DNA from: an uncultured bacterium
Lineage (GTDB): Bacteria; Patescibacteriota; JABMPQ01; CAVVCK01
DNA: 64,000 bases
Assembly: GCA_963746775.1 (NCBI GenBank)
Contig: CAVVCK010000001.1
Span: forward strand, 418,435-482,434
Direction of reading: 5' to 3'
Each line of letters begins with the position of its first letter. Position 1 is the stretch's first letter. The notes under the pieces are model-generated. The model made no database searches. It saw only the letters and a list, made by a program, of their open reading frames with translations, and had not been told where the DNA came from. The translations under genes were made by a program, and so were the position numbers. Of the stretch, positions 7,952-48,586 are shown piece after piece.

Positions 7952-8034
7952 AGATTACATTATAGCAAAAATCTTTATTATTTAAAAAGCGATATTTAAA
8001 ATACCGTTTTTTATAATTTTATATTTTTAGTTTT

Positions 8035-9087: not shown

Positions 9088-9129
9088 AGGTTTTAAATTT
9101 ATAATTTATATAGTATTTTACTTTCTACA

Positions 9130-10173
9130 TTATACCTTCTTATTATAGCCTTTAGTTAAACTCCGATATGACCAAAATCCTATGGGCATAGGCAGCCACA
9201 ATGCTAAAAACCTAAAAATTAAAACAGCCAATATAGCTAATTCCAGAGGAACTCCAAAACCAGAATAAATAAGAGCTAAGGATGCTTCAAATATTATAAA
9301 TCCCGAAGGAACAAGAGAAACAAAAGAAAAAACATCCGCTAAAACAAACCCGATAATTAATATTGCTATGGAAATTTCATAATTTAGGGCTTTAAAAATA
9401 AAAAATACAGTCAAAATATCAAAGACATGGACTAAAATAGCATAAAGTAACGATTTAAACATTTGTTTCTTCCTGCCTTTTACCTCTCTCCAGCCACGAT
9501 AGAATTCTTCTATCATCATAAATATTTCTTCTTCCTCTAGCAACTCTCTTTTTATCAATCTTCTAGAAATTCTATTTAATTTAGAAAGGATGAAACGCAA
9601 AACTTTTTCGAAAAGAGTGCGCTTGCGAAAAAATAGGTACACCCCCACAGTTAATATTACCGTTACTAAAAATCCAAGGCCAGAAGCAATAAATTCTTCT
9701 ACATTAATTTCATTCCTGGCTACCAAATAAATTATTACTCCGATAAGGAAAAAATAAAAACTTAAATTATTAAATAAATAATATAAGACAACTACTACAG
9801 CGCTAATACCTTTCTTTATCTTTTCCTTGCTAAAAAAATAGAATAAAAAAGAAGTCCCGGATAACCCACCAGAAGGAAAAGCAACATTTAAAAAATTTAT
9901 AGAAAGTACAGCTTTAAAAGACTTAAAAAATTTTATTTTTGTATGCTGTATTAAGAGCAAATTATTAATAAAAAGTACGACAGAAATATAAGTTAAAATT
10001 TGAGTAAATAATGCTAAAACTATAAAAATTATTTTTGCTTCTTTTACAGCTTCAACAACTTTTTGAAAATCAGAAAACTTTAGAAAAATTAAAATAATAA
10101 CGGAAAAAATAGCAGCAATCAGTATCACCTGCGACCAATGAAATTTTTTAATATTATTTCTCTTCTCTAACAA
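9130..10173 (-). CDS. polytopic integral membrane protein (flippase-like / UPF0104-like)
   Basis: About 8 predicted TM helices with Lys/Arg-rich loops. No catalytic motif recognised. Confidence 0.3.
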   Translation of the reverse strand: MLEKRNNIKKFHWSQVILIAAIFSVIILIFLKFSDFQKVVEAVKEAKIIFIVLALFTQILTYISVVLFINNLLLIQHTKIKFFKSFKAVLSINFLNVAFPSGGLSGTSFLFYFFSKEKIKKGISAVVVVLYYLFNNLSFYFFLIGVIIYLVARNEINVEEFIASGLGFLVTVILTVGVYLFFRKRTLFEKVLRFILSKLNRISRRLIKRELLEEEEIFMMIEEFYRGWREVKGRKKQMFKSLLYAILVHVFDILTVFFIFKALNYEISIAILIIGFVLADVFSFVSLVPSGFIIFEASLALIYSGFGVPLELAILAVLIFRFLALWLPMPIGFWSYRSLTKGYNKKV

Positions 10174-15184: not shown

Positions 15185-16799
15185 TTATTTTGTATAATTC
15201 TTCCTAAATTTCTCCATAAAAGGAGTTGTCTCTCTCTTTGGCACTTTCATTTTCTTCAATCTTTTCTCAATTTCAGCCTGTGATAATTTAACATTCAATC
15301 TTCTTTTAGATATATTAATTTCAATCACATCACCATTTTTTATAATTCCAATTACTCCACTATTATATCCTTCAGGCTCAATGTGACCAATACAAGCTCC
15401 TCTAGTTCCACCGGAAAAACGGCCATCTGTAAGCAAAGCTACTTTGAGACCTGCACCAGAAATCACTGAGGTAGGTGTCAACATCTCCGGCATACCAGGA
15501 GCACCAGCCGGCCCCATAAAATTAACTACTACTACATCACCATTTTTAATATTTTTATTTTCTACCGCCTTCATTACTGCTTCTTCAGTATTGAATACCT
15601 TGGCTGGTCCGCTAAATTCTAGCATATCTTTCTCTACTGCTGTTTGTTTTATAACCGATGAATTGCAAATATTTCCTTTCAAAACGGCAATACCTCCTTC
15701 TTTGTAATAAGGATTATTCAATGGTCGAATTACATCATTATTTTTAATTTTACCCTTTTGAGCTATTTCTTTTATATTTTTTCCATTTACAGTCTCTGAT
15801 GATTTTAAATATTTTTTTAATCTATTTAAAACTGCTGGAATTCCTCCTGCCTTATCCAAATCTTCCATTACATGCTCACCTGCTGGTCTTATTTTACAAA
15901 TATTGAGCGTAGTTTTAGATATTTTATCAAATAATTCCAATGGCAAATCAATATTCATCTCATTTGCTATAGCAGGTAAATGTAGAGCGGTGTTAGTTGA
16001 CCCCCCAATAGCCATATCAACTCTGATTGCGTTTTCAAAAGCAGCTTTAGTCATAATCTTCCGGGGGTAAATATTTTTCTTTACTAACTGCACAATTTTC
16101 TTGCCGGTCTGATAAGCTTGTTTTTTCTTTTTAGGATCTAGGGCTAGAGTTGTGGCACAACCAGTCAGGGACATACCCAAAACTTCTGTCATACAAGCCA
16201 TAGAATTAGCAGTAAATAATCCTGCGCAAGAACCAGCCCCAGGACAAGCCCGGCATTCTATTTTATAGGCTTCTTTCAAATCCATTTTACCAGCCTTAAC
16301 TTTTCCAACAGCTTCAAAAGCGCCAGATACTAAATCTATGCCTTTCCCGTCAATGCTCCCTTCTTTCATTGCTCCGCCAGTAAGAATTATAGCTGGTAAA
16401 TTTAACCTGCCAGCTGCCATAAGCATACCCGGTGTAATTTTATCGCAATTAGTTACCCCCCACCCAACCGTCCAAAGAATGAGATAACATCATAATTTCT
16501 ATATTATCAGCAATATGATCACGAGAGGGCAGTGACAATCTCATTTCCACATGCATAGCGATACCGTCACACACACCCGGCACTCCCCATTCAAATGGCA
16601 CTCCTCCTCCATCTACAATCCCTCTTTTAACTTCCTTAGTTAATTCATTTAAATGAATATGGCCTGGAATTATATCGTTATAGGAATTGGCAATACCAAT
16701 AAAAGGTTTTTTGAAATCATTATCTCTTAAACCTGTGGCACGAAGTAAGGATCTATGAGGCATTGTTTCAATGCCCTTTTTTAGTTTTTCACTTCTCAT
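15185..16799 (-). CDS. ilvD: dihydroxy-acid dehydratase, split into two ORFs by a +1 frameshift in a C6 (G6 on the coding strand) homopolymer at 16455-16460
   Basis: ORF 16449-16799 encodes the IlvD N-terminus ([23 protein letters not shown]...GIAMHVEM...[10 protein letters not shown]). ORF 15185-16426 continues it ([13 protein letters not shown]...). Removing one G restores [21 protein letters not shown], the conserved [12 protein letters not shown] motif. Confidence 0.8.
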
Positions 16800-17699
16800 T
16801 TAATTAACAAAAGTTAGCCATTTATAATATTTTTTATTTTTTCCATTAATAATCTGACTAAATTCTTCTTTTAGTTTTCTAGTAACAATTCCTAAATCAT
16901 TTTTTAATTTCTTCCCATTAATTTGCCCCACTGGTGATACTTCAGCCGCCGTACCAGTTAGGAAACATTCATCCGCTTCCTGTATATTTTTTAATTTTAA
17001 TTTCTTTTCTAATATTTTATAACCTAAATCTCGAGCTAGTTGCATAATAGACTCTCTGGTAATACCAGCCAAAATAGTGCCCAAAGGCGGAGTATAAATT
17101 ATATTATTTTTAACAATAAAAATATTCTCAGCTGACCCTTCGGCTACATAACCTTTATAATCAAGCATAATGGCCTCAGTATAACCTGCCTTCGTTGCTT
17201 CCATTACAGCTAACATAGCATTAACATAGTGCCCTGTTATTTTAGCATCAGCGAAGGTAGACTCCGGATGAATACGCACAAACCGCGATACTTTTAACCG
17301 AGCTGATTCTTCGCCAAGATATGAACCCCAAGACCAACAAGCAATAGCCACATCAACAGGTAAGCCTGTAGGATTTACGCGCAAAGGACCGTGACCATAA
17401 TAAGCAATAGGTCTAATATAGCCGGATTTAATTTTGTTCTTTTTAATTAAATTAACAATTGCCTCTTTCAGTTCTTTCTTGTTATAAGGCATTTTCATAT
17501 GTATGCACTTAGCCGAATAAAGCCATCTATTGATATGCTTGTCTAATTGAAAAATTGCCTGACCCTGTTTAGTATTATAAAATCGTATACCTTCAAAAGC
17601 ACCGGTTCCATAGTGCATGGTATGATTTAAAACATGGACTTGAGCTTTGTTCCAATCAACCAGTTTGCCATTAAACCAAATTTTTGATGTTTTTTGCAT
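16800..17699 (-). CDS. ilvE: branched-chain amino acid aminotransferase (fold type IV)
   Basis: MQKTSKIWFNGKLVDWNKAQVHVLNHTMHYGTGAFEGIRFY. 299 aa. Confidence 0.85.
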   Translation of the reverse strand: MQKTSKIWFNGKLVDWNKAQVHVLNHTMHYGTGAFEGIRFYNTKQGQAIFQLDKHINRWLYSAKCIHMKMPYNKKELKEAIVNLIKKNKIKSGYIRPIAYYGHGPLRVNPTGLPVDVAIACWSWGSYLGEESARLKVSRFVRIHPESTFADAKITGHYVNAMLAVMEATKAGYTEAIMLDYKGYVAEGSAENIFIVKNNIIYTPPLGTILAGITRESIMQLARDLGYKILEKKLKLKNIQEADECFLTGTAAEVSPVGQINGKKLKNDLGIVTRKLKEEFSQIINGKNKKYYKWLTFVN

Positions 17700-17700
17700 T

Positions 17701-18288
17701 TTATTCCAAATTAGTATGCTTTCCTTTCATATACTTTTCCGAAATACCAAACTCGCTCATTAGAATGGGAATTATAGAATCAAAATAAATCATAGTGCTC
17801 AATTCAAATAATGTCCCCATGGGCATAATCTTTTTATTCTTTTCAACTAATTGTCTAGCCAAATAATTTTCTGTATCTGATTCTTCTACTTTAGTTTTTA
17901 ATTTAATTTTCACATCAGAAATCTTTCCTATAGAGGAATTTTCATTACTAGTTATAGTTATTATTTTTGATTTTTGGCTTTTGGCCGCTTGAGCTACATG
18001 TAAAACAGAGCTAGTTTCACCAGAACCACTGACAACTAATAAAACATCATTTCGTGAAATAGCCGGCGTAATAGTATCACCCACAAAATATACTTCCTTA
18101 CCTAAATGAACTAAGCGCATAGCAAATGATTTAGCTACCAATCCAGATCGACCTGCTCCAAAAACAAAAACTTTTTGTGAATTTTCAATTATTTCTACAG
18201 CAGCTTTAGTATCTCTCTTAGAAGATTTTGATATAATTGTCTCAATGTTCTTGGTAATTTTCTTGGCATTTTTTATAAAATCCGGCAT
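17701..18288 (-). CDS. hxlB: 6-phospho-3-hexuloisomerase (SIS domain)
   Basis: VFVFGAGRSGLVAKSFAMRLVHLG and SGSGETSS SIS motifs. 195 aa. Adjacent to the HPS gene. Confidence 0.7.
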   Translation of the reverse strand: MPDFIKNAKKITKNIETIISKSSKRDTKAAVEIIENSQKVFVFGAGRSGLVAKSFAMRLVHLGKEVYFVGDTITPAISRNDVLLVVSGSGETSSVLHVAQAAKSQKSKIITITSNENSSIGKISDVKIKLKTKVEESDTENYLARQLVEKNKKIMPMGTLFELSTMIYFDSIIPILMSEFGISEKYMKGKHTNLE

Positions 18289-18306
18289 TTGTTATGAATT
18301 TATAAT

Positions 18307-18963
18307 TTATAATGTAAAATTTTGAATTGATTCTTTAATACTTTTTGCAGCCTCGACTGGATCATCTACCCCTGTAATCCCTCCACCAACTATCACTATA
18401 TCTATATTTTTAATTCCTTCTAACTGGCTTATATTTTCTTGTTTAATTCCTCCGGCAACCACCAATTTCCCACCTAAACCTGATATAGCCTCTGATATTT
18501 CTCTGGTTTTAGAAAAAGTTGTTTTACCCTGTCTTTGCTCACTTATGCCACAATGCACTCCTAATAATTTCACTCCCATCTTAATTAATTCTTTAGACCT
18601 TTCAATATAGTCCCTAACACCAATTAAATCAACTACCGCAATTAAACCATTCTTATTAGCAAATTTTAAGCCATCCTCAATATTCTCTATAGGGGATGCC
18701 CCAAGCATAGTTACATAAGTCGCTCCACATTCCATAGCTACTTGAAATTCAATGTCAGCTACATCAGCTGCTTTTAAATCGGCTACTAAGGGCTTTTTTG
18801 TTTTTTCACTAAACGCTTTTAAAACATCTCTCATCCCACAAGCCTTAAGCAAGGGTGTACCAGCTTCGATAAGATCTACTTCAGATTCTACTTTTTCTAT
18901 CATCTTCAGCGGATCTTCTAAGCTTACATAGTCGAGTGCTAATTGTAATTTTGGTTTTTCCAT
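18307..18963 (-). CDS. hxlA: 3-hexulose-6-phosphate synthase (OMP decarboxylase fold)
   Basis: LQLALDYVSLEDPLKMIEKV...DLIEAGTPL. 218 aa. Confidence 0.7.
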   Translation of the reverse strand: MEKPKLQLALDYVSLEDPLKMIEKVESEVDLIEAGTPLLKACGMRDVLKAFSEKTKKPLVADLKAADVADIEFQVAMECGATYVTMLGASPIENIEDGLKFANKNGLIAVVDLIGVRDYIERSKELIKMGVKLLGVHCGISEQRQGKTTFSKTREISEAISGLGGKLVVAGGIKQENISQLEGIKNIDIVIVGGGITGVDDPVEAAKSIKESIQNFTL

Positions 18964-19403
18964 TATTTATAATTATTTATTTTATTAACTCTATCCTTGT
19001 GTCTTCCACCTTCAAATTCACTTCCCAAAAATCTATCAACTATTTTAGTCGCTAAATCATAATCAATAATTCTTGCACCTAAACATAAAACATTAGCATT
19101 ATTATGTTTTCTTGTCATTTCTGCTTCTTTTTCTATATTACAATGCGCTGCCCTAATGCCTTTTACTTTATTAGCCGCTATACACATTCCAATCCCTGTC
19201 CCACAAATTAAAATTCCTAAACTATTTTCTTCACTTGCTACTTTTTTCCCTAATTTAAAAGCGTAATCAGGATAATCAACTGAATCAATGTTATTTGTCC
19301 CTAAATCTTCAATTTCAATATTTTTATCTTTTAAATAATTTTTTACTTTTTCTTTTAGTTCAAATCCGGCATGATCTGAAGCTATATATATTTTTTTAGA
19401 CAT
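18963..19403 (-). CDS. rpiB: ribose-5-phosphate isomerase B
   Basis: MSKKIYIASDHAGFELKEKV...CGTGIGMCIAANK. 146 aa. Confidence 0.85.
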   Translation of the reverse strand: MSKKIYIASDHAGFELKEKVKNYLKDKNIEIEDLGTNNIDSVDYPDYAFKLGKKVASEENSLGILICGTGIGMCIAANKVKGIRAAHCNIEKEAEMTRKHNNANVLCLGARIIDYDLATKIVDRFLGSEFEGGRHKDRVNKINNYK

Positions 19404-19774
19404 AATTAAATAAATTATTTATAAAATATCAACTTTGTTAGGTTTAATCTTTGGTTTCTCAGTCCCATAAACAGATGGTGGCATATTACTTACTATTCCT
19501 TTAAAAGTACCAAATGATAAGGAAATAATCAAATCGATATTATTTCATAACATTTTACCGTTTTGTTTTCCCTGGTAATAACAATCAAAATAATCAATAA
19601 AATTTAAATGATGTAAATAAAATATATCTTTTTTTGCTGATGTTGGATATTCGGAAAAACAGATAGAAACTATTTTACCAATTCCTAATTGTTTTTTATA
19701 GATTGTATTCATGATTTATATTATTTCAAAAATTGTCTAAATCTGTTAATATTTATCTACATTAATAAATTATT

Positions 19775-22348
19775 ATGGAAAATACCTCTGGTCTCTCTCA
19801 AAAAAGAGCTGAAATGCTCCTAAAAAATAATGGTTATAATGAATTACCTTCACAAAAAAATAAAAATAGTTTTTTAATTTTACTAAAGGTAATTTCCGAA
19901 CCGATGCTGCTTCTTTTAATTATAAGTGGTCTTATTTACTTTTTTTTGGGTGAAATACAAGATTCTTTAATGCTTCTAAGTTTCGTCTTAGTGGTTATAG
20001 GCATTACTTTTTATCAAGAAAGAAAAACAGAAAAAACCTTAATTGCCTTAAAAGAACTATCCAGCCCTAGAGTTTTAGTAATTAGAGATAATGAGCAGAA
20101 GATAGTTCCAGGGCGTGAAATAGTAAAAAATGACATTATTATTCTTCACGAAGGCAATAGAGTACCAGCCGATGCCGTTATTTTAGATTGTGAAAATTTA
20201 GCCATCGATGAATCCCTACTTACCGGAGAATCCATTCCTGTTAGAAAAACAAAATGGGATATGAAACTGAAAATACAAAGACCAGGAGGTAATGATTTAC
20301 CATTTATTTATTCTGGATCAATGGTAGTAAGCGGACAAGGAATAGCTAGAATTATTGCTACTGGTTCTAACACAGAGATAGGAAAAATTGGCAGAAGTAT
20401 TGAAGCAATCAAAGAAGAAGATACTCTCTTACACAAAGAAACAGCTAAAATAGTTCGTTTAATAGTTATTTTTGGCGCCCTACTTTGTTTATTAGTACTC
20501 TTAATTTATATTTTTATAAAAGACAATATTGTTCAGGGTTTATTAGCAAGCTTAACACTAGGCATGGCTATTCTTCCGGAAGAGTTTCCTGTCGTTTTGA
20601 TTATTTTCTTAACATTAGGAGCTTGGCGCATTTCAAAAAACAAAGTACTTACCAGACATCCGGCAGCCATAGAAACATTAGGAGCTACTACCATACTTTG
20701 TACTGATAAAACCGGTACTCTAACACTGAATAAAATGAGATTAATTAGTTTATATTCTCAAAACTCATTTTGTGGAATTAAAAATTATTCTACAGCTTAT
20801 AATTTGCCTGAAAAATTTCATAGCCTTTTAGAATATGGCATTTTAGCTAGTCAAAAAGATCCCTTTGACCCAATTGAAAAAGAACTAAATAAAACAGGTA
20901 ATTTATTTCTTAAAAATACTAAACATTTACATCAAAGTTGGTCTCTGAAGAAAGAATATCCTTTATCTAAAAACTTATTAGCAATATCACGTGTTTGGCA
21001 ATCTCCTGACCAGAAAAATTTCATCATTGCTTCCAAAGGAGCACCAGAAGCAATTTTTAATCTTTGCCATTTTAACTCTGCTCAAAAAAAAGAAGTGCTT
21101 CAAGAAGTAATAAAAATGTCTAATCAAGGTTTACGAATTTTAGGAGTGGCTAGAGCAAAATTTTCTCAAGATAGTCTTCCTAAAAATCAGCATGATTTCT
21201 CTTTTCAATTTATAGGTTTACTGGGTTTTATAGATCCAGCTCGTACCACTGCCCCCCAGGCAATAAAAGAAGCCTACAATGCTGGTATACGCGTTATTAT
21301 GATTACGGGTGATTATCCAGGAACTGCTCAATTCATAGCCAAAAAAATAGGCATTAATAATCCAGAACTATATATTACCGGCGAAGAATTAGAAAAAATG
21401 AATCATCTTGAATTAAGAAAAAGAATTAAGAAAACTAATATTTTTGCCCGAGTCATCCCTGAACAAAAGTTATTGATTGTTAACGCCCTAAAAGCAAATA
21501 ATGAAATAGTAACCATGACCGGCGATGGTGTTAATGATGCTCCAGCCCTAAAATCTGCTCATGTCGGCATTGCTATGGGAGAGCGTGGAACAGATGTTGC
21601 CCGCGAAGCATCCTCGCTAGTTCTTTTAAATGATGATTTTTCTTCAATTATAACCGCCGTAAGGTTAGGAAGAAGAATCTTTGATAATATTAAAAGAGCT
21701 ATGGGCTATATCTTAGCTGTTCACATACCTATCGCTGGCATTTCAATTCTTCCTCTTTTTTTTGACCTACCGATTATTTTGCTGCCAGCTCATATTGCTT
21801 TTTTAGAATTAATTATAGATCCAGCCTGCTCGGTTGTTTTTGAATCAGCTAAAGAAGATAAACAAATAATGAATAGGCCGCCCCGCAATCTTCACCATTC
21901 AATATTTAATTTTAAAACAGTTTCTATTAATATTTTACAAGGATTGGGTATATTACTGGCAATTTTTCTCTTGTTTCTCTTTACAATAAAATCAGGTATG
22001 GGAGAATACGAAGCTCGTTCTTTTGCTTTTACATCCTTAGTTTTGGCTAATATAGCACTTATTATAACTAATCTTTCTTGGGAAAAAAATATTTACCAAA
22101 TACTACGATCAGCTAATAAAACTTTATTTATAATTATTGGTAGTGCACTTATCTGTCTGCTTGGAATATTATACATACCCTTTTTAAATAATATTTTCCA
22201 TTTGGTTCCTCTTCATTTAAATGATCTTGCTCTTGTTGGTTTGATTGTTTTTGTTAGTTTAGCTTGGTTCGAAATATTTAAATACTACAAATATAAATTA
22301 AATCTTAATAATTATTTATCAAATAAAATTAAGAACTTAAACATTTAA
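19775..22348 (+). CDS. calcium/cation-translocating P-type ATPase (P2-type)
   Basis: ILCTDKTGTLTLNKM, TGDYPGTA, GDGVNDAPALKSAHVGIAMG. N-terminal GLSQKRAEMLLKNNGYNEL. 857 aa. Confidence 0.85.
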   Translation: MENTSGLSQKRAEMLLKNNGYNELPSQKNKNSFLILLKVISEPMLLLLIISGLIYFFLGEIQDSLMLLSFVLVVIGITFYQERKTEKTLIALKELSSPRVLVIRDNEQKIVPGREIVKNDIIILHEGNRVPADAVILDCENLAIDESLLTGESIPVRKTKWDMKLKIQRPGGNDLPFIYSGSMVVSGQGIARIIATGSNTEIGKIGRSIEAIKEEDTLLHKETAKIVRLIVIFGALLCLLVLLIYIFIKDNIVQGLLASLTLGMAILPEEFPVVLIIFLTLGAWRISKNKVLTRHPAAIETLGATTILCTDKTGTLTLNKMRLISLYSQNSFCGIKNYSTAYNLPEKFHSLLEYGILASQKDPFDPIEKELNKTGNLFLKNTKHLHQSWSLKKEYPLSKNLLAISRVWQSPDQKNFIIASKGAPEAIFNLCHFNSAQKKEVLQEVIKMSNQGLRILGVARAKFSQDSLPKNQHDFSFQFIGLLGFIDPARTTAPQAIKEAYNAGIRVIMITGDYPGTAQFIAKKIGINNPELYITGEELEKMNHLELRKRIKKTNIFARVIPEQKLLIVNALKANNEIVTMTGDGVNDAPALKSAHVGIAMGERGTDVAREASSLVLLNDDFSSIITAVRLGRRIFDNIKRAMGYILAVHIPIAGISILPLFFDLPIILLPAHIAFLELIIDPACSVVFESAKEDKQIMNRPPRNLHHSIFNFKTVSINILQGLGILLAIFLLFLFTIKSGMGEYEARSFAFTSLVLANIALIITNLSWEKNIYQILRSANKTLFIIIGSALICLLGILYIPFLNNIFHLVPLHLNDLALVGLIVFVSLAWFEIFKYYKYKLNLNNYLSNKIKNLNI

Positions 22349-22383
22349 TATTTGTAACTTATCTCTAGCCTATATTATAAATT

Positions 22384-24234
22384 CTATTTTCCATTTCTCT
22401 TATTATAAAGTATATTGTATCCCCTCTCAAAAGCCTCAATCGAGGCTACTATTACATCTGGAGAAGTAGCGGTCGCAATAACTCTGTTGTCCTTATCATC
22501 TTTCAAACTCATGGAAACTTCCACCGTCGCATCAGTTCCTTTCTGATCAATTTTTACATCAAAATCTGTTAACCAATATTTCATTAACTTTTCTTTTTTA
22601 ATAACTGCCCGAACTGCTCTCATTATAGCATCAACCGGGCCTACACCTTTAGCTTTGTCCGTACTTACACATTTATTTTTTATACAAACTTTAACTTCTG
22701 CTACTGCCTTATCATTTTTAGAAGTAGATACTTCAAAATCTTCTATCTTAATTAATTTCTTTGAATCCGGTACAGTTTTTAGAACATCTTCTATAATATG
22801 TTGCAAATCTGACCCTACCATTTCTTTTCCTTTCTTGAAAAAACTCTCTATTTCATTATATGTGGCACTTAAATACTCTTTATTTAAATCCAGGCCAAAA
22901 TCTTTATTTATTACTCTCTTTAATTGTCCCAAACTAGGTTTCTTAGACCAAAGTTCTTTTACTTTATCTTTTTCTACCGTTCCTTTAATATTATATAATT
23001 TCATTTTCAAATAGCTATCTACTTCAGACATCTTTGGTTCAATCGAGGGTGGAGAAGGCAAAATTTTCAACATAGTTAAAGGATCTTTTAATCCATTGCC
23101 AGTACAAACACAAACAACCACGTCATCTTTTTTAATTTTCTTTTGTTTCACCATTTTATGTAGTGCAGCTAGAGGCAACGCTGCCGAAGGTTCAACAAAA
23201 ATTGATTCTTTCTCCGCTAATTCTTTTTCAGCATTTAGCGTATCTTCATCTGTTACTTCAATTGCCTCACCACGAGTTCCATAAATAGCCTTTAATAACT
23301 TTAAGCCATCCAGGGGCATACTAACCGCTACTGCCGATGACACGGTACTAGGTTTTTCTATAGCTTTCATTGTTTTAGATTTTCTCTTAAATGCCTCAAC
23401 TACTACATTGGCACCCTCAGGTTGCACACCAACAACTTTGGGCAACTTATCAATAAATCCTAATTCATACATTTCTCTAAATCCTTTATAGATAGCTGAC
23501 AAATTTGTACCACAACCAACCGGAGCTATCACCCAATCAGGAGACTTCCAGTAAAGCTGTTCGGCTATTTCATAGCCTTGCGATTTCTGTCCTTCTCCGC
23601 GAAAAACATAATCTCCAGCTAAATAAAATCCATATTTATGAGCAATTTCTTCAGTTAATTTAGCACACTCAGTATAAGTTCCCCTCACCTGAATTACTCT
23701 GGCACCATAAGCTAGAGTTTGAGCTAGTTTTCCCAAGGGAGTTCCTTCAGGTACTACAATATAAGCGGGAATTCCTGCTTGAGCGGCATAAGCAGCCACA
23801 GATGCTGCCATATTCCCAGTTGAGGCGGTAATAATAGCTTCTGCCCCCATTTCCATAGCCTTAGTCATTTCTACCATCGTTCCTCTATCTTTAAAGCCCC
23901 CTGTAGGATTAGAAGTTTCATCTTTAAAATATAATTTATTTAAACCAAGTTTCTTACCTATTTGTTTGCTTCTTTTTAAGGGCGTTCCTCCTTCATTAAG
24001 GCTGACTAATTTATTTAAATCCATAATAGGATAAAAACTCATATATTTAGCCGATGAAAGTGGTGTATTTTTTAGTGAATAAAAATTAAGCCTGCTCTTT
24101 ATATATTCATAATCATATTCAACATCCAAGGGTCCGCCACACTTCAGACAATGAGAAGTTGTTTCCTCTTCTTTAAAATATTTTCCACAGTTTGCACACT
24201 TTAATTTATAAAATTTTTCTTGTTTGGTTGTCAT
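22384..24234 (-). CDS. thrC: threonine synthase with N-terminal Zn-ribbon and a C-terminal LeuA-dimerisation/regulatory-like domain (unusual fusion)
   Basis: PLP-lysine motif NPTGGFKDRGTMV and Cys4 N-terminus (CANCG...CLKCGG). The C-terminal ~150 aa (KAKGVGPVDAIMRAVRAV...TDFDVKI...GTDATVEVSMSL...SPDVIVASIEAFERGYN) resemble the LeuA_dimer allosteric domain. Confidence 0.7.
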   Translation of the reverse strand: MTTKQEKFYKLKCANCGKYFKEEETTSHCLKCGGPLDVEYDYEYIKSRLNFYSLKNTPLSSAKYMSFYPIMDLNKLVSLNEGGTPLKRSKQIGKKLGLNKLYFKDETSNPTGGFKDRGTMVEMTKAMEMGAEAIITASTGNMAASVAAYAAQAGIPAYIVVPEGTPLGKLAQTLAYGARVIQVRGTYTECAKLTEEIAHKYGFYLAGDYVFRGEGQKSQGYEIAEQLYWKSPDWVIAPVGCGTNLSAIYKGFREMYELGFIDKLPKVVGVQPEGANVVVEAFKRKSKTMKAIEKPSTVSSAVAVSMPLDGLKLLKAIYGTRGEAIEVTDEDTLNAEKELAEKESIFVEPSAALPLAALHKMVKQKKIKKDDVVVCVCTGNGLKDPLTMLKILPSPPSIEPKMSEVDSYLKMKLYNIKGTVEKDKVKELWSKKPSLGQLKRVINKDFGLDLNKEYLSATYNEIESFFKKGKEMVGSDLQHIIEDVLKTVPDSKKLIKIEDFEVSTSKNDKAVAEVKVCIKNKCVSTDKAKGVGPVDAIMRAVRAVIKKEKLMKYWLTDFDVKIDQKGTDATVEVSMSLKDDKDNRVIATATSPDVIVASIEAFERGYNILYNKRNGK

Positions 24235-24599
24235 AATTTTTTTAGTAGTTGAAATTGGTTATTTGGAAGATAGATATTAGTAATAGAAATTAGATAACAG
24301 AAAATGGTAAACAAATTTCCAATCTCTATTTTCTATTACCATTTTCTAATTTTTAAACAGCAATTTACTTGTATATTTATTAATATTATTCATATTAATT
24401 AGCATATTGGCATTGTGTTATTAGTATATAAAAATGCCACCTATTACGGTGGCTTATACTAAACAAAAAATTCCAGGTAAGCCACCTAGGCAGCAATAAT
24501 AATTAAATTTATAATCCAAAATATTCTTTTCAACTTTTTTCTAATATTTCATTATCTTCTTCTATACCTTACACATTATTTTATCCATCGTCAAGAAAT

Positions 24600-24628
24600 A
24601 TTGAAACTAGCACTAATATATGCTATAA
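24600..24628 (+). promoter_or_regulatory. sigma70-type promoter TTGAAA-17-TGcTATAAT (extended -10) upstream of the M23 peptidase gene
   Basis: TTGAAA at 24600-24605. TATAAT at 24623-24628, preceded by TG. The start codon is 83 bp downstream. Confidence 0.55.
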
Positions 24629-24710
24629 TATTAATAAGTAATATGCTTCCAGTACTTAACAAAATTTTTAAGTACAAATATGCCCTTACAGGGTATAAAA
24701 CAAAAATAAA

Positions 24711-26243
24711 ATGAAATTTAATTTTTTATCTAAATTAAGCTTTAAATCGGTTGTATTTTTATTGTTTTCTTTGTCTTTTTTCCCTTTAATAACTATTAAA
24801 GCCAGTGATCTTCCCTCTAATATGGCTTATCCAGTTGATAATTGGAGAATTGTCCAAGATGGAGGAGAATTTGGTTATGAGAGAGAAGATAAAACATTCC
24901 ATTTGGGCGCAGATTGTCCTAAATCTGCCGGAGAAGCGGTATATGCTTTTATGGATGGTGTAGTAAAACACGTTGGAATTCATAGCCGTTTTGGTACTGT
25001 AATTTTAATAGAACACACTCTAAACGAAGAAAAAATAGTTTCCCTTTATGGCCATTTACGTGGAATTGACGTTGAAGTAACTGAAGGCCAGAAAGTAACC
25101 AAAGGTCAATTAATCGGACATATTGGCGCTTCAGGTCCTGAAAATGGCTATTGGTCGGAACATTTACATTTTGGAATTAGAAAAGGTGAATATGTTAATG
25201 TTAAATCACAGTGGGTTTATTGGGGCTTAGGGAGTGAAGAAGAGTTAGCTAATTGGTATAATCCTGCTATATTTTTAGGAGAAGGTTATAAAAATTTAAT
25301 AGACATTAAACAGACAAGTAGAATTGTTACCATTCCAGGGCTTGGAGGTAATACTCAAGCTAAATTATTTGATAAATATGGTAATAAAATAGAAAATTCT
25401 GATATTTATGCCTCTAGCCATAATTTTGATGGAGGAGGAGATGCTGTCTTCGGTAAAACTGACGGTAATGATAATGTTGAAGAAATTATTATTGGAGCTG
25501 GTGTAGGAGACAAGCCTTATGTTAAAATATATGATAAAAGTACTAAAGAACTCATTAGAAAATTTTTAGCCTATAATGAGAGTTTTATGGGTGGTGTTAG
25601 AGTAGCTTCTGGTGATTTAGATGGAGATGGAATAGATGAAATTATTACCGGAGCTGGTCCTGGCGGAGCACCTCATGTTAGAGTTTTTGATAATTTAGGA
25701 AATGTTATTTATGGAAAATTATTTCCTTTTGGTGAAAATCTAAAAACTGGTGCTGATGTTGCTACAGGAGATATAGATGGTGACGGTCGAGATGAAATTG
25801 TTGCCTCTCAAGGTCCAGGTAATGAACCAAAAGTAGCCATCATTAACGAAAATGGAAAAACTGAAAATGAATTCCTAGCTTATAATAAAAATTTCAAGGG
25901 CGGAGTAAGAGTAGCTACTGGTGATATTGACCGTGATAGCGAAGATGAAATTATAACTGGTGCTGGTCCCGGCGGCGGACCTCACGTGAGAATTTTTGAG
26001 GCTGATGGTAAACCGAGAGGTATAGATTTTTTCCCTTTTTCCCCTAGCTTCAGAGGTGGTGTAGATGTAAGTTCTATTGATTATGATCAAGACGGTAAAG
26101 ATGAAATAATTATGACACAAGCATCAGGAGGACAAGCTTGGGTCAAAATATATAGATATAATGATGAGAAAACTGTTTACGCAAATTTTTTAGCCTACCC
26201 GGAATATTTTGAAGGCGGAACTTATGTTTCAGGTTTAGAATAA
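24711..26243 (+). CDS. secreted M23 (LytM-type) metallopeptidase with C-terminal FG-GAP repeat beta-propeller
   Basis: Signal peptide. M23 motifs HLGADCP...YGHL...GHIGASG...HLHFGI. At least five repeats of the form GDxDGDGxDEIITGAGPGGxPHVRxF (FG-GAP). Confidence 0.75.
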   Translation: MKFNFLSKLSFKSVVFLLFSLSFFPLITIKASDLPSNMAYPVDNWRIVQDGGEFGYEREDKTFHLGADCPKSAGEAVYAFMDGVVKHVGIHSRFGTVILIEHTLNEEKIVSLYGHLRGIDVEVTEGQKVTKGQLIGHIGASGPENGYWSEHLHFGIRKGEYVNVKSQWVYWGLGSEEELANWYNPAIFLGEGYKNLIDIKQTSRIVTIPGLGGNTQAKLFDKYGNKIENSDIYASSHNFDGGGDAVFGKTDGNDNVEEIIIGAGVGDKPYVKIYDKSTKELIRKFLAYNESFMGGVRVASGDLDGDGIDEIITGAGPGGAPHVRVFDNLGNVIYGKLFPFGENLKTGADVATGDIDGDGRDEIVASQGPGNEPKVAIINENGKTENEFLAYNKNFKGGVRVATGDIDRDSEDEIITGAGPGGGPHVRIFEADGKPRGIDFFPFSPSFRGGVDVSSIDYDQDGKDEIIMTQASGGQAWVKIYRYNDEKTVYANFLAYPEYFEGGTYVSGLE

Positions 26244-26289
26244 TTCTTCTAAAAATTATTCTATAAAATAAAAATAAAAATCCATAAAA

Positions 26290-27537
26290 ATGAAAATAAA
26301 AATCTCTTTATTCCTACTTCTAAACTTACTAGCCATATTTACTTTAATAAATTTGACTTCAGCTTCAACCATTGATCAATTACAGCCTGCCGCTTATACA
26401 ATCAATGAAGATTTAACAGTAAATGGAACTGGTATCTTTAATTCCATTAAAATAGGTAAACAAAACGAAGGAGGTGTAACTTTCTTTAATGGTTCTATTG
26501 TTAACGCTACAACTACTGACGGAATCGATAATCCTATAGCTTTTGCCGATAATATAAGGATAGATGGCATTTTATTCAGAACAGAAGAAGGTGGTAATAA
26601 CCCTTTAAAAATAGGTGATACTCTGAAACCTAATAGTGATAATAGTTATGATATAGGACAAACAGACTCTCAGTGGAGAAATGCTTACTTCACCGGCACT
26701 GTTAGTGTTGGCAATTTACAAGGATCAAAAATAATTCATCCAGACAATCTAGCTACTTCTAATTCTGCTTCCTCAGGACAAGTTTTGTCATATAATTCCG
26801 AGGGTAATCTAGAATGGATTCCAGTCGCAGGAAATAGCGGTGATATAACTGCAGTTAGCGCCGGTTCTGGTTTATCGGGCGGTGGAACATCAGGTGATGT
26901 ATCTTTAAGCGTCTCTAGCACTGGCATAACTAATACTATGCTAGCAAACAATGCGGTAACTTCAGCTAAAATACAGGATGGCACCATAGCAGGAGCCGAT
27001 CTTACTTCTAGTTATCAATCAGGTTCTGCCTATGATAGTCGATTCGTAACCCAATCTTCTCCTTCCTGGAGTTCTAGAACTGGTTATGTAAGTGTGGCTC
27101 CCGGCGCCTTCACCCCTAAAAAGAACTATTATGATACTGATCCAGGAGGAAGTACTGATTATAATTATACACATCTAGGATATAAGTTAACTGGTACAAA
27201 TGTTGCCGCTGAAAAATATTATGCCCAAGTTGATCTCCCTCATGGATCTACTATAGCAAGATTAGATTTTTATTACGATGATGACGATGCTTCTAAACAA
27301 GCTAGGTTAGACTTATTAGCACATAGCAGAGTAGCTGCTGCACCTAGTTATTTAGCTACTGTACAATCACCAACAGGAACTGATAGTGATGGTAGCAGTT
27401 ATGACGATACTATTTTAGATGTTTTGAAAACTATTGATAATAGTAGTTATAGTTATTATTTAGAATTAGGATTATCCTCTACAAACCTAAGTTATTATGG
27501 TGCTACTATAACTTATACTTATACAGAACCTTATTAA
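26290..27537 (+). CDS. secreted fibre/adhesin-like protein, paralog 1 of 3
   Basis: Signal peptide. Conserved N-module (DLTVNGT...GGVTFFNG...RIDG...W..AYF.G.V.VGNL.G). Tail-fibre-like ITNTMLANNAVTSAKIQDGTIAGADL repeats. C-terminal ITYTYTEPY. Confidence 0.6.
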   Translation: MKIKISLFLLLNLLAIFTLINLTSASTIDQLQPAAYTINEDLTVNGTGIFNSIKIGKQNEGGVTFFNGSIVNATTTDGIDNPIAFADNIRIDGILFRTEEGGNNPLKIGDTLKPNSDNSYDIGQTDSQWRNAYFTGTVSVGNLQGSKIIHPDNLATSNSASSGQVLSYNSEGNLEWIPVAGNSGDITAVSAGSGLSGGGTSGDVSLSVSSTGITNTMLANNAVTSAKIQDGTIAGADLTSSYQSGSAYDSRFVTQSSPSWSSRTGYVSVAPGAFTPKKNYYDTDPGGSTDYNYTHLGYKLTGTNVAAEKYYAQVDLPHGSTIARLDFYYDDDDASKQARLDLLAHSRVAAAPSYLATVQSPTGTDSDGSSYDDTILDVLKTIDNSSYSYYLELGLSSTNLSYYGATITYTYTEPY

Positions 27538-27616
27538 TAAAATGATTTTTAAAATTATAAAATTTTTGTTATAATAAATAATAATTTAAAAAGACTCTGC
27601 CAGATAAAAAAACAAA

Positions 27617-28690
27617 ATGAAAAAACTATTGCCTTTCCTAACAATTTTAGGCATCTTCGCTTTGGTGGATCTAGCCTCTGCTTCCCCCGCTACCGATCTT
27701 CAACCAGCTCAAACTATTACCTACAACGAGGATCTAACAGTTAATGGTACTGCCAGGTTTGATTCTGCTTACATTGGTAAAACTACCGGCGAAGGCGGAG
27801 TAACTTTTTTCAATGGTACCATGATTAATAATTCAGCAGGTAGTGTTCCTCTGACTATGGGTGATGACTTAAGAGTAGATGGTATGATTTGGAGAGGGCC
27901 TTCTAAAGGAACAGCTGATGATATGCCTTTAAAGATAGCCGATACGCTAATGCCTGCTCTAAATAATGTTAACGATATAGGGACGGAAGATAATCAGTGG
28001 AAAGATGCCTATTTTGCTGGTGAGGTAACTGTAGGTAATTTGTTAGGAACAGGAGTAATTCATACTAATAACCTAGCTACTACTAATGCTGCTTCAACTA
28101 ATCAAGTACTATCCTATAACGGAGAGGCTTTAGAATGGGTAAATGGAGGTGATATTACCGGAATTACTGCTGGAACAGGATTATCTGGCGGAGGAACAAG
28201 TGGAGAGGTGACGTTGAGGGTGGATGATGATTATGTTGTAACCCAGTCTTCACCTGAATGGGATGCTAGAACAGGAGAAGTAAATGTTGCACCAGCCGAT
28301 TGCACAGGAGGAAGTAATTCATCTAATTTTACTCTAGATGCCACACGTTTCTATGCAGGATCTGTAGCATTTTTCTACTGCCCAGTACATTTACCTAACG
28401 GGGCTAATATTACTAGTTTTACCGCTAATGTGGAAGACACACACGCATCAAATTTGACAATAACATTACAAAGAAATCAATTGACAGATGGTTCTCCTGT
28501 TACTCAAAATCTCGCTTCTGTAAATTCAAGTTCTAGCTCTGGAAAAGTATTGTTAACAGATTCTACTATTGATAATGCCACAGTTGATAATGATTATACT
28601 TATACGATTTGGTTAAACTTCGGTGCTGCTTCTTCATTATTATCCTTTGATGGAGCAAAAATCACTTATACCTATACAGAACCTTATTAA
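27617..28690 (+). CDS. secreted fibre/adhesin-like protein, paralog 2 of 3
   Basis: Same N-module and C-terminal KITYTYTEPY as paralog 1, with a divergent middle region. The signal-peptide coding sequence is near-identical to that of paralog 3. Confidence 0.6.
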   Translation: MKKLLPFLTILGIFALVDLASASPATDLQPAQTITYNEDLTVNGTARFDSAYIGKTTGEGGVTFFNGTMINNSAGSVPLTMGDDLRVDGMIWRGPSKGTADDMPLKIADTLMPALNNVNDIGTEDNQWKDAYFAGEVTVGNLLGTGVIHTNNLATTNAASTNQVLSYNGEALEWVNGGDITGITAGTGLSGGGTSGEVTLRVDDDYVVTQSSPEWDARTGEVNVAPADCTGGSNSSNFTLDATRFYAGSVAFFYCPVHLPNGANITSFTANVEDTHASNLTITLQRNQLTDGSPVTQNLASVNSSSSSGKVLLTDSTIDNATVDNDYTYTIWLNFGAASSLLSFDGAKITYTYTEPY

Positions 28691-28720
28691 TAAAAATATA
28701 AAATAATATAAAAAAACAAA

Positions 28721-29602
28721 ATGAAAAAACTATTGCCTTTCCTAACAATTTTGGGCATCTTTGTCTTAGCTGGTTTTGCTTCTGCCTCTACCGCTAATGA
28801 ATTACAACCTGCCTCATCACTTGTTGTTGATAAAGAACTACGAGTGCTTGGTACCGCTAGAGCCTATTCAATTCGTATCGGTGCTCAGGGATATGGTGGT
28901 GTAACTTTTTTTAATGGAACAATTATCAACGAAACCACGGATACAGATACAGGAACAGAAATGCCAGTAACTTTTGGTGATGATGTCAGAATAGATGGAC
29001 GTATTTGGAGAGGAGAAAATGCCGGACCAGGATTAAATGATGATCGTGAGCTTATTGTTAATGATGATATGGAGATAACTGGTGATTTAACTGTTAACAA
29101 TTTAGTTGGTACAGGAGTAGTAAATAGTAATAATATATTAGATGGGACAATAACTACTGCTGATTTGGCTGATAGTTCAATTACTAGTGCTAAACTTACT
29201 GATGGAACTATAATGGGTAGTGATATTTCAAGTTCTGCTGATTTAAGTGTAGCTACTGGTACTTTTTCGGGAGATATAACTGCCCACGGAGATATTATTC
29301 AGGATTTAGCTGACCATGGAGCAGCGAAAGCGTTAACTGTTATACATGAGGATGGAACATGCCCAACTCAATGGACATATAATGATAGTACTATAACTTG
29401 TGCAAGCATTGGTGCTGGAAATTATACTGCAACATTCACTTTTAATGTTTATAATAGATATAACCAGTTAACTGGATTACAATCTGATCCGCATTTCCTT
29501 AATTATAATGTAAACCTAGCTACACCAAAAGTTCTCTATATACGTAGCTACGATATTGCAGGAAATCCAGAAAATTCTAATGTTGTAATTTCTGTTTTCT
29601 AA
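28721..29602 (+). CDS. secreted fibre/adhesin-like protein, paralog 3 of 3 (shorter, divergent C-terminus)
   Basis: MKKLLPFLTILGIFVLAGFASAS signal peptide. Conserved GGVTFFNGTIINE...RIDGRIWRG module. ILDGTITTADLADSSITSAKLTDGTIMGSDI repeats. Confidence 0.6.
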   Translation: MKKLLPFLTILGIFVLAGFASASTANELQPASSLVVDKELRVLGTARAYSIRIGAQGYGGVTFFNGTIINETTDTDTGTEMPVTFGDDVRIDGRIWRGENAGPGLNDDRELIVNDDMEITGDLTVNNLVGTGVVNSNNILDGTITTADLADSSITSAKLTDGTIMGSDISSSADLSVATGTFSGDITAHGDIIQDLADHGAAKALTVIHEDGTCPTQWTYNDSTITCASIGAGNYTATFTFNVYNRYNQLTGLQSDPHFLNYNVNLATPKVLYIRSYDIAGNPENSNVVISVF

Positions 29603-29620
29603 ATAACTCACAAAAATATA

Positions 29621-29647
29621 AACCGTCTTCTTTAGACGGTTTTTTAT
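29621..29647 (+). terminator. rho-independent terminator ACCGTC-TTCTTTA-GACGGT + TTTTTATTT
   Basis: 6-bp GC stem plus T-run immediately after the third fibre-like gene. Confidence 0.8.
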
Positions 29648-46726: not shown

Positions 46727-47143
46727 TTAGGCAACAAATAAAGCCTGAATTACATAACGACTGATAGCAAAGGCAATAGCGATAATAACTACACCAATAA
46801 TCGCATATAACATGATTTTCTTACCTGTTTCTATTCTCTCCTCATTACCTATTGAAGTTGCATAAACAACACCACCATAAACAAATAAAGCAACTAAAAC
46901 AACACCTAATATTCCTACTACCCAACTAATAATTCTAGCAACAAAATCTGGAAGATTTACATCTTGTGCTAAACCCGTATCTTGTACATCATCTAAAGTA
47001 GCTGCTGGATCACCTGCTGTTACGCCAGCACCATCACCAGGAGCAGCCAATACTGGAGTAAAAAGAGTAAACATTAAAGTTAAAGCAAATAAAAAACTGC
47101 CTATAACCATGTATAATTTAGCCATTTTTTTCATTCCATTCAC
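46727..47143 (-). CDS. VirB2/TrbC-like (T4SS-type) pilin-like protein, paralog 1 of 6
   Basis: Signal peptide. Conserved C-terminal module IISWVVGILGVVLVALFVYGGVVYATSIGNEERIETGKKIMLYAIIGVVIIAIAF (helix-loop-helix). Confidence 0.55.
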   Translation of the reverse strand: MNGMKKMAKLYMVIGSFLFALTLMFTLFTPVLAAPGDGAGVTAGDPAATLDDVQDTGLAQDVNLPDFVARIISWVVGILGVVLVALFVYGGVVYATSIGNEERIETGKKIMLYAIIGVVIIAIAFAISRYVIQALFVA

Positions 47144-47683: not shown

Positions 47684-47708
47684 TTTTTAAATAATTTATA
47701 TTTACAAT

Positions 47709-48560: not shown

Positions 48561-48586
48561 TTTTTTATAATTTTATGTTTTCATAA

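Follow-up and report, generated by a model that had tools for sequence, protein, structure and literature searches.

Mosaic fiber genes beside a conserved M23-FG-GAP peptidase gene in a parcubacterial genome: a variable island with a possible role in partner contact

When a gene for a secreted cell wall hydrolase is followed on the same strand by several genes for fiber-like secreted proteins, do the enzyme and the fibers form one dedicated apparatus, or do they only share a place on the chromosome? The question is raised by a 64,000-nucleotide stretch (here called the window) of contig CAVVCK010000001.1 (assembly GCA_963746775.1) from an uncultured bacterium, an AT-rich segment of about 31% GC that includes bacterial 23S and 5S rRNA genes and belongs to a Patescibacteria/Parcubacteria genome of about 547 kb. 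Four open reading frames (ORFs) lie there on one strand exactly where a sequence-only reading of the DNA had placed them (Table 1). ORF1 encodes a predicted M23 metallopeptidase fused to an FG-GAP propeller, and ORF2 to ORF4 encode paralogs with a signal peptide, a conserved N-terminal module (the N-module), a repeat-bearing shaft, and a C-terminal tip. We lean, with somewhat better than even confidence, toward the reading that the locus combines a conserved M23-FG-GAP enzyme with a variable island of mosaic surface fibers acting in contact with a partner or host cell.

Comparison with syntenic genomes separates the enzyme from the fibers. The order thrC (minus strand), M23-FG-GAP gene, fiber genes, tsaD, and class I tRNA synthetase gene forms a conserved backbone, in which the number of fiber genes between the M23-FG-GAP gene and tsaD ranges from three in the window through two in L078 and one in L080 to zero in L081 and L082. 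The orthologs of ORF1 in these genomes are 73% (L078), 77% (L080), and 63% (L081 and L082) identical to it. One of the two fiber genes of L078 is ORF3-like and apparently truncated; the other, like the single fiber gene of L080, is ORF4-like, and an ORF4 positional ortholog is retained beside tsaD in both genomes. Since three to zero copies stand beside a conserved enzyme gene, the fibers constitute a variable island and not an obligate partner of the enzyme. Elsewhere, fiber arrays adjoin genes for GatB, RNase Y, GluRS, pyruvate kinase, H+-PPase, and similar proteins; the neighbors of more than 90% of the arrays are housekeeping or otherwise unrelated genes, and no conserved partner gene was found up- or downstream of them. 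The dedicated enzyme-plus-fiber cassette of the sequence-only reading is not supported by this pattern, in which the M23-FG-GAP gene stands alone or with one or two fiber genes in syntenic genomes and most arrays elsewhere lack an M23 gene.

The gene directly upstream of an array on the same strand encodes an FG-GAP propeller protein in 5 of 78 other arrays, compared with 17 of 917 genes in the fiber loci overall and 0 of 67 downstream neighbors. Three of the five propellers are fused to GH113, CE4 deacetylase, or GH18 domains, and two are NHL-repeat propellers, only one of which passes the Pfam FG-GAP thresholds. Farther upstream, an additional CE4-FG-GAP gene and a gene for a GDSL lipase occur in two of the five loci; in the GDSL protein, Pfam finds no FG-GAP repeat at E ≤ 0.001. 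The upstream enrichment is suggestive of propeller-enzymes and fibers possibly acting at one place. It also lends something to the idea of an integrated attack cassette, in which the fibers would dock the cell or the enzyme on a target wall, the M23 domain would cut that wall, and the FG-GAP propeller might bind the N-module. The compact layout of the four genes (one strand, intergenic gaps of 30 to 79 bp, one strong promoter-like site, one terminator) fits this idea, and secreted wall hydrolases have been proposed as host-attack tools in Vampirococcus, a predator of the candidate phyla radiation (CPR) (PMC8080830). We nevertheless consider it fairly unlikely, given that M23-FG-GAP orthologs at the same place by tsaD (63 to 77% identical) are accompanied by two, one, or no fibers, that the M23-FG-GAP family has a much wider distribution than the fiber family, that the fiber arrays keep mostly housekeeping company, and that an internal promoter-like site precedes ORF3.

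The fibers themselves carry the features expected of exported proteins. All four proteins of the locus have a basic n-region, a hydrophobic h-region (12-residue Kyte-Doolittle means of 2.4 to 2.7), a small-x-small site, and an acidic mature part with no further transmembrane-like stretch. The signal peptides of ORF2 to ORF4 are of a basic/hydrophobic/ASA type, that is, Sec type and not prepilin type, and Sec-type signal peptides also start about 290 relatives; the secretion proposed earlier for all three proteins is supported by these features. With the N-terminal part of ORF2 as the query, phmmer recovered ORF3 (E = 3e-42), ORF4 (E = 4e-23), and nothing further in the window, and the alignment contained invariant GGVTFFNG, D..R.DG, and NL.G motifs, in agreement with the view that these are three paralogs with a conserved N-module. 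The module extends over about 125 residues directly after the signal peptide and reads LQPA..(T)VNGT...IG.QG.GGVTFFNG(T/S)I.N.T....P.TF.D..RIDG..R, continued in ORF2 and ORF3 by PLKI.DTL.P......D.G....W..AYF.G.V.VGNL.G. Searches of Pfam, NCBIfam, PHROG, and the PDB assigned it to no family. Only in its second half is there a weak resemblance to phage proteins, namely to parts of tailspike 6eu4 (E = 0.015) and of a Klebsiella jumbo-phage tail fiber (32% identity, E = 2e-4). Neither Pfam nor NCBIfam gave an S-layer/SLH, flagellin, or pilin match for ORF2 to ORF4 at E ≤ 1, and the proteins do not fall into the S-layer or flagellin families that the sequence-only reading had named as an alternative. 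NCBIfam as a whole and PADLOC likewise returned nothing for these three proteins. A match of the bactofilin family (PF04519) to residues 83 to 143 of ORF4 (E = 5.5e-4) was under the cut-off and was read as generic beta-helix periodicity and not as membership, and the sole match in a PDB sequence search with ORF2 was a chance DARPin.

The shaft bears the main likeness to phage proteins. The tail fiber protein family phrog_38058 matched residues 154 to 259 of ORF2 with an E value of 2.9e-7 (about 3e-7 for both ORF2 and ORF3), and shaft modules of ORF2 recur in the fiber proteins P0017, P0044, and P0047, which bear a Peptidase_S74 domain. The AKIxDGTIxxADL-type repeats that had been ascribed to all three paralogs occur once in ORF2 and as about three half-units in ORF4 and are absent from ORF3. 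Profile searches against the PDB returned repeat motifs only (Legionella phage LME-1 9eg4 orf16, tailspike 6eu4, and T5 pb1). Remote homology covers short shaft modules common with phage tail fibers, and no match extends over most of a protein. The likeness to phage tail fibers and tailspikes (S74-chaperone fibers, T5 pb1, and the Acinetobacter protein 6eu4) consists of the motifs GDITAV.AG.GLSGGG, SAKIxDGTI, and P..DN.YDLG....(W/F)(R/K).AY, together with a conserved proximal end, an exchangeable distal tip, and horizontal tip swapping. ORF2 to ORF4 differ in being chromosomal genes in a housekeeping context, in having Sec signals, and in the reach of the similarity (E values of 1e-4 to 1e-7 over 13 to 25% of the proteins).

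These differences bear on whether the locus might be a prophage or tailocin remnant, with degenerate tail fiber genes and a phage lysin in ORF1. The phrog_38058 matches would be explained in this way, as would matches of several M23 endolysin PHROGs to ORF1, short tblastn matches to the Klebsiella jumbo-phage tail fiber and to minor tail proteins of Gordonia phages, and the rve transposases near the arrays of L077 and L078. The flanks, however, contain no capsid, portal, terminase, baseplate, or integrase gene; what borders the locus is a P-type ATPase gene, thrC, tsaD, and a tRNA synthetase gene, in an order conserved between genomes. All four proteins carry Sec signal peptides, which are absent from virion proteins; the phage matches span 13 to 25% of the proteins at E values of about 1e-4 (about 2e-4 in tblastn); and other copies are scattered in chromosomal housekeeping contexts. 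A search of 50,697 phage genomes produced short shaft matches only and none to the tips. A remnant of this kind is very improbable and largely refuted, and the phage-tail-derived system that had been entertained for the locus falls with it.

The tips were examined in AlphaFold2 monomer models made with family alignments, whose confidence is given as the block-mean predicted local distance difference test (pLDDT). In the ORF2 model, pLDDT exceeds 90 for most tip blocks from about residue 310 and ranges from 49 to 94 over residues 261 to 310. Foldseek searches of the PDB placed the ORF2 tip near the carbohydrate-binding module (CBM) BT0996-C, CBM15/6/61, Cry domain III, the Eph ligand-binding domain, and the Sf6 needle knob. 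The tip of ORF2 and ORF3 is accordingly read as a CBM- or lectin-like jelly roll, and the guess of a lectin fold proved apt for it. Matches of the ORF2 model in BFVD were to fibers with C1q/TNF-like heads, with a root mean square deviation so high that they count as architectural resemblance only. ORF4 has a tip of another class, predicted as a small two-cysteine beta-sandwich (pLDDT above 95); the ITYTYTEPY terminus once described for all three proteins is found on ORF2 and ORF3, and ORF4 ends in NSNVVISVF. In the ORF2 model as in the ORF4 model, DSSP assigns no secondary structure to the N-module and shaft, which adopt an extended form, and the N-terminal part of the ORF4 model has block means of 78 to 93 at residues 61 to 100 and 111 to 130. 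Monomer predictions of intertwined trimers are usually extended in the same manner, and the models are suggestive of such a trimer.

The predicted folds also speak to the reading of the paralogs as polymorphic toxin-like effectors, in which an N-terminal trafficking module would deliver variable C-terminal toxins. Such effectors are alike in having a conserved N-terminal part, a swappable C terminus, tandem arrays, and recombination junctions. The tips, as modeled, are small beta-sandwich folds of a binding type and not nucleases, deaminases, or pores; the 30- to 79-bp gaps leave no space for immunity genes; and Pfam, NCBIfam, and PADLOC gave no toxin or immunity match. Of the explanations weighed here, this one is the least probable.

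The mosaic nature of the fibers emerges from comparison across genomes. Clustering of the last 110 residues of 291 distinct N-module proteins yielded at least 39 unrelated tip clusters. The three large ones have 105, 52, and 52 members, and 25 contain a single tip each. The ORF4 tip belongs to the 105-member cluster, and the ORF2 and ORF3 tips belong to a single 52-member cluster. Unrelated tips were found in 12 pairs of proteins with N-modules at least 85% identical, and the reverse, tips at least 70% identical on N-modules less than 50% identical, was found in 5 pairs. ORF3 and P0009 are identical at 205 of 205 residues, covering the signal peptide, N-module, and shaft, after which identity falls to 22%. 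The P0009 tip, in turn, has its counterpart in P0100, a protein of a 1.05-Mb genome: the two tips are 80% identical, on N-modules that are only 46% identical. P0009 resides together with P0085 and P0125 on a 547,535-bp genome, which was considered as a sister strain and rejected because no cluster-mates at ≥90% were found for TsaD, the P-type ATPase, the tRNA synthetase, ThrC, or ORF1. The other fibers of that genome are only 39 to 58% identical to ORF4. Identity over 205 residues between genomes that are not close therefore points to a recent exchange of this fiber segment between lineages. In Joint Genome Institute metagenomes, an exact 42-mer scan for DNA of the P0009 genome found none, and a protein-guided scan found only relatives of about 65% identity.

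The tip types of ORF3 and ORF4 have diverged far faster than the N-modules that bear them; for the ORF4 tip alone, identity is 33 to 40% to homologs whose N-modules are 64 to 89% identical. Shaft repeat number varies as well, from two SAKI-type units in ORF4 to about five in P0085. The hypervariable C termini of the sequence-only reading are thus real for the ORF3 and ORF4 tip types (N-modules 70 to 100% and tips 14 to 40% identical to those of the nearest homologs) and not for the ORF2 tip (74 to 89%), and the C-terminal cassette switching that it had suggested looking for was seen as outright replacement, both in ORF3 and P0009 and in the 12 and 5 pairs. Its general description of fiber-like secreted proteins with exchangeable C-terminal domains of a binding type agrees with the phage-fiber shaft modules and the swapped tips. 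At the DNA level, ORF3 and ORF4 have in common an exact stretch of about 45 nt that runs from the A-rich upstream region through the ATG into the first codons of the signal peptide, within a longer 5' repeat. Positions 16289 to 27633 of the window are matched at 99.99% identity by L001, a public short-read contig that ends 17 nt into ORF3, and the 45-nt stretch is likely to serve as a substrate for gene conversion and to have caused this assembly break. No tip-related template and variable repeats of a diversity-generating retroelement were found in the locus or the 64-kb window, in searches that did not explicitly include reverse transcriptase.

The first sets of homologs comprised 81 and 175 proteins, nearly all unnamed or named as Parcubacteria/Patescibacteria. 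When 1.84 billion representative proteins were searched exhaustively with a profile, 354, 930, and 4619 clusters were obtained at E ≤ 1e-30, 1e-10, and 1e-3, respectively. Scanning a GTDB-representative collection (one genome per species) with the pattern GGVT[FY]FNG[TS] gave 122 confirmed stretches in 74 loci, with up to at least 11 copies per genome; the genome of the window is outside this collection, where its best match is 32% identical. Almost all N-module loci belong to metagenome-assembled genomes (MAGs) of Patescibacteria, Parcubacteria, Kerfeldbacteria, or WWE3, and 6 loci stand under other, unverified taxonomic labels. The genes are often in tandem, with up to six per array. The N-module family is small, nearly confined to Patescibacteria, and multicopy. 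Among its members, P0016 combines the N-module with a Peptidase_S74 (PF13884) intramolecular chaperone (E = 7.5e-11), and a protein at L077:6127-8205 combines it with YadA_head repeats (E = 1.3e-12). Outside trimeric fibers and adhesins, neither the Peptidase_S74 nor the YadA_head domain is known to occur. A literature search found no description of the N-module fiber family in the CPR, and we regard ORF2 to ORF4 as an undescribed, lineage-restricted variant of mosaic receptor-binding fibers, the principle of which is not new.

Several arrays have features of their own. The largest (L006:569-13051, Parcubacteria MAG JABMPQ010000005.1) has six N-module fiber genes, preceded by CE4-deacetylase-FG-GAP and GH113-FG-GAP genes, with a gene for a PEGA and seven-bladed-propeller protein interposed (7792-9282). 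Genes for rve-family transposases adjoin the fiber arrays at L077:6127-13433 and L078:5892-6497 (1.05-Mb genome, ENA ERZ1757541 contig_6554). The L077 array has a divergent N-module with NGV(I/L)FANNTIVN replacing GGVTFFNG, and its YadA-head fiber has an unassigned C-terminal domain. Three giant proteins (P0192, P0195, and P0226; 3733 to 4696 residues) contain 20 to 36 shaft-repeat matches each, and the SAKIxDGTI-type repeat therefore also serves very long fibers.

Distribution and tip fold together bear on a further alternative, in which the fibers coat the cell's own surface or capture substrates. They would then serve nutrient capture, aggregation, or phage shielding, with tips binding mannan, chitin, or the cell's own envelope, and tip turnover would follow substrate or phage pressure. 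The ORF2 tip is closest in fold to the carbohydrate-binding modules of glycoside hydrolases, the FG-GAP fusions beside arrays elsewhere are carbohydrate active (GH113, GH18, and CE4), and no dedicated host-contact machinery adjoins the arrays. High copy number and rapid tip replacement, some of it between lineages, nonetheless fit receptor-binding proteins, such as those of phages and the mosaic adhesive trimer (MAT) fibers of Bdellovibrio, better, and the YadA-head and S74 modules of relatives are ones that cell-cell adhesins and receptor-binding phage proteins typically carry. Moreover, every cultivated member of the Patescibacteria is an obligate episymbiont (PMC11623550). We hold a coat or capture function to be doubtful.

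In the reading that we favor, of a conserved enzyme beside a variable island of contact fibers, Sec would export the fibers, with the signal peptide cut at the ASA-type site; the N-module would nucleate a trimer and hold the fiber on the surface of the producer; a shaft of varying repeat number would set the reach of the fiber; and the beta-sandwich tips would bind a ligand, such as a surface glycan, carried by a substrate or by the cell of a partner or host. Glycan would be the most plausible ligand for the CBM-like tips of ORF2 and ORF3. The repertoire would arise by duplication, by gene conversion at the 5' end, and by recombination at the junctions of N-module, shaft, and tip, including recombination between lineages, so that related genomes differ in fiber number and tips. 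At the site of contact, the M23 enzyme may play a supporting part without being an obligate partner. Of this scheme, the architecture, paralogy, distribution, mosaicism, and island synteny of the fibers and the CBM-like fold of one tip are established here, and the trimeric state, retention on the surface, ligand binding, and role in contact between episymbiont and host are inferred. Several points weigh against this scheme. The N-module has no recognizable anchor motif (lipobox, LPXTG, or SLH) and no homolog of known function. The fold scores of the ORF2 tip are modest (E values of about 2e-4 and TM-scores of 0.4 to 0.62), and for the ORF4 tip the PDB gave no significant fold match, the best being tailspikes (the Pam1 receptor-binding domain, Dettilon, and phiAB6) at E = 0.04. 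The ORF2 tip is not fast evolving (74 to 89% identical to homologs versus 73 to 75% for the N-module), and the comparison of ORF3 and P0009 is one of protein sequences only. The tips could instead bind a noncellular polysaccharide or the cell's own envelope.

The closest analogue of the ORF2 to ORF4 family appears to be the MAT superfamily of Bdellovibrio bacteriovorus, surface-displayed, glycan-binding trimeric fibers with a signal peptide, a conserved beta-rich N-domain of about 130 residues, and S74 or non-S74 tips (PMC10769870). The likeness lies in a signal peptide with an N-module of about 125 residues directly after it, a phage-like shaft, swappable tips, and many paralogs. MAT tips include S74, TNF-like, lectin, and beta-sandwich types, and the N-module family similarly has S74 (P0016) and non-S74 (ORF2 to ORF4) members; Bdellovibrio also lives by contact with other bacteria. 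The differences are those of another phylum and another envelope type, of length (290 to 430 residues here, compared with MAT constructs that reach past residue 1,000), and of display and glycan binding, which have been demonstrated for MATs and are proposed here. The crystallized MAT fragments have no sequence match to ORF2 to ORF4, and since the likeness of the N-domains is one of architecture, the family is described here as MAT-like in its working and not as a member of the superfamily. The accessible part of the supplements to the MAT paper mentions no CPR homologs (PMC10769870).

Other systems are more distant. The fibers resemble Bacillus BclA and the C1q/TNF-headed fibers of phages and giant viruses in having an N-terminal attachment part, a variable stalk, and a C-terminal jelly-roll head, a resemblance that is architectural only, and they differ from the BclA type in having no collagen-like stalk. 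BclA, a protein of the exosporium, is a trimeric surface fiber with a jelly-roll head. To our knowledge, Parcubacteria have no cultured members, and no comparable contact factor has been described for them. Little has been learned of the way in which ultrasmall Patescibacteria locate their hosts and stay attached to them. Known host-contact factors comprise the type IV pili of Saccharibacteria and the recently described Pam pilus (PMC11623550; bioRxiv 10.64898/2026.03.03.709456), and the CPR Pam pilus is a different system, built of Ig-like pilins by donor-strand exchange (bioRxiv 10.64898/2026.03.03.709456). The N-module family offers candidate proteins for host recognition by uncultured Parcubacteria that are open to testing, with a signature to search for (GGVT[FY]FNG...R.DG), tip classes to correlate with hosts, and small soluble tips for binding tests, and the analysis corrects the tempting view of an M23 enzyme and fibers as a fixed cassette. 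It is possible, although we rate this below even, that N-module fibers are the host-recognition proteins of some Parcubacteria and related Patescibacteria, that host range evolves by module swapping, and that the recurrent upstream propeller-enzymes cut wall or glycan at the contact site and possibly dock to the fibers. If so, the fibers would be to these cells what receptor-binding proteins are to phages, with tips and even entire N-module-plus-shaft segments traded among co-occurring lineages.

The enzyme is the more conventional component of the locus. ORF1 is a predicted Sec-secreted peptidoglycan endopeptidase, with a match to PF01551 of 71.7 bits (cut-off, 28.7; E = 5.8e-20) over profile positions 2 to 94 of 96 and with intact zinc motifs of the types HxxxD (H64-L-G-A-D68) and HxH (H151-L-H153). 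The FG-GAP (E = 2.7e-15) and FG-GAP_3 (E = 3.3e-12) matches are both over the Pfam cut-offs, and the propeller consists of five clear DxDxDGxDE-type blades and one degenerate blade with a periodicity of about 51 residues, reflected in DNA repeats spaced 153, 156, and 309 nt apart. The fusion of a signal peptide, an M23 domain, and FG-GAP repeats was thus correctly recognized from the start. Relatives of ORF1 form more than 50 clusters of 495 to 526 residues with PF01551 and PF01839/PF13517, 40 to 79% identical over 93 to 100% of ORF1, and NCBI names several orthologs "VCBS repeat domain-containing M23 family metallopeptidase." In length, domain order, and catalytic motifs, ORF1 is alike to this family, with no notable difference, and is, by these comparisons, an ordinary member of an already named family of Patescibacteria. 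Other matches to ORF1 have a similar propeller joined to S8 peptidases and YkuD transpeptidases, and FG-GAP-enzyme fusions are therefore a general theme in Patescibacteria.

Table 1. Positions of genes, protein modules, repeats, and putative control signals at the fiber locus, numbered from the first nucleotide of the window
Feature	Position	Strand	Basis or remarks
ORF1, 510 aa, secreted M23 (LytM-type) metallopeptidase with FG-GAP/VCBS beta-propeller (predicted)	24711..26243	+	Pfam, NCBI naming, signal-peptide features
M23 catalytic domain, residues 63-162	24897..25196	+	PF01551 and motifs
FG-GAP repeat region, about residues 205-505	25323..26225	+	FG-GAP (4 stretches), FG-GAP_3 (5 stretches)
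ORF2, 415 aa, fiber paralog 1	26290..27537	+	Signal peptide 1-26, N-module 27-153, shaft 154-260, jelly-roll tip 261-415
ORF3, 357 aa, fiber paralog 2	27617..28690	+	Residues 1-205 signal peptide, N-module, and shaft; 206-357 jelly-roll tip
ORF4, 293 aa, fiber paralog 3	28721..29602	+	N-module variant 24-135, DGTI/SAKL repeats 136-190, tip 191-293
ORF2 N-module (LQPA...VNGT...GGVTFFNG...RIDG...PLKIGDTL.P....YD.G....W.NAYF.G.V.VGNL.G)	26368..26748	+	Alignments
ORF2 shaft, phage-tail-fiber-type modules (GDITAV.AG.GLSGGGTSGDV.L.V; SAKIQDGTIAGADL)	26749..27069	+	phrog_38058 match
ORF2 tip, predicted beta-sandwich jelly roll ending ITYTYTEPY, tip cluster 1	27070..27534	+	AlphaFold2, Foldseek; 52-member cluster
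ORF4 tip, tip cluster 0	29291..29599	+	AlphaFold2; largest class, 105 members
ORF3 module junction, codons 205/206 (...RVDDD|YVV...)	28229..28234	+	ORF3/P0009 identity ends
5' repeat copy A, upstream region and ORF3 signal-peptide codons	27604..27708	+	Paired with copy B; 81% over 105 nt
5' repeat copy B, upstream region and ORF4 signal-peptide codons	28708..28812	+	Paired with copy A
Promoter-like site TTGAAA-17-TGcTATAAT	24601..24629	+	11/12 matches, TG extension; 82 nt 5' of ORF1 start
Internal promoter-like site TTTAAA-16-TATAAT with TG	27548..27575	+	Between ORF2 and ORF3; 10/12 matches
Intrinsic-terminator-like hairpin, 9-bp stem and T-run	29620..29642	+	Terminator-like on both strands

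The site upstream of ORF1 is the top promoter-like site in the region. Sites of this kind are not enriched in the AT-rich DNA (32 found versus 25 ± 5 in shuffles), and a promoter role is for that reason plausible only; the extended -10 promoter that had been said to drive ORF1 thus stands as a site and not yet as a function. The terminator placed after ORF4 was found as a hairpin that starts 18 nt past the ORF4 stop. None of the four genes is preceded by a recognizable Shine-Dalgarno sequence (positions 24686-24710, 26265-26289, 27592-27616, and 28696-28720), and the 25 nt 5' of each ATG is A-rich, as in AAAAAAACAAA-ATG.

A 476-bp gap (24235-24710) separates ORF1 from the divergent thrC and contains two minus-strand sites with a hairpin and T-run (24453-24436 and 24489-24473) upstream of thrC, which could be a leader, an attenuator, or a small RNA. 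An Rfam search of the 476 bp 5' of ORF1 gave no family at E ≤ 1, save a chance match within thrC. The gene itself (22384-24234, minus strand) encodes a threonine-synthase-like PALP enzyme with a C-terminal LeuA_dimer allosteric domain (E = 6e-24), a fusion that is kept in the syntenic genomes L078 and L080. Farther along the window, the minus strand carries 5S and 23S rRNA genes (53240-56299) with no adjoining 16S rRNA gene inside the window and a protein-coding ORF next to them at 56623-57699, an arrangement that may reflect a split rRNA operon. A second amplified family of surface proteins in the window is encoded at 46727-50256 (minus strand), where six tandem paralogs for small secreted proteins have a conserved C-terminal segment in common. 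Two of the six have long Cys-rich inserts (47709-48560 and 49363-50256), the first of which matches EB/DUF7107, and four of the six were scanned and contain a PF18895 T4SS_pilin (TrbC/VirB2-like) hairpin (E values of 4e-10 to 6e-12).

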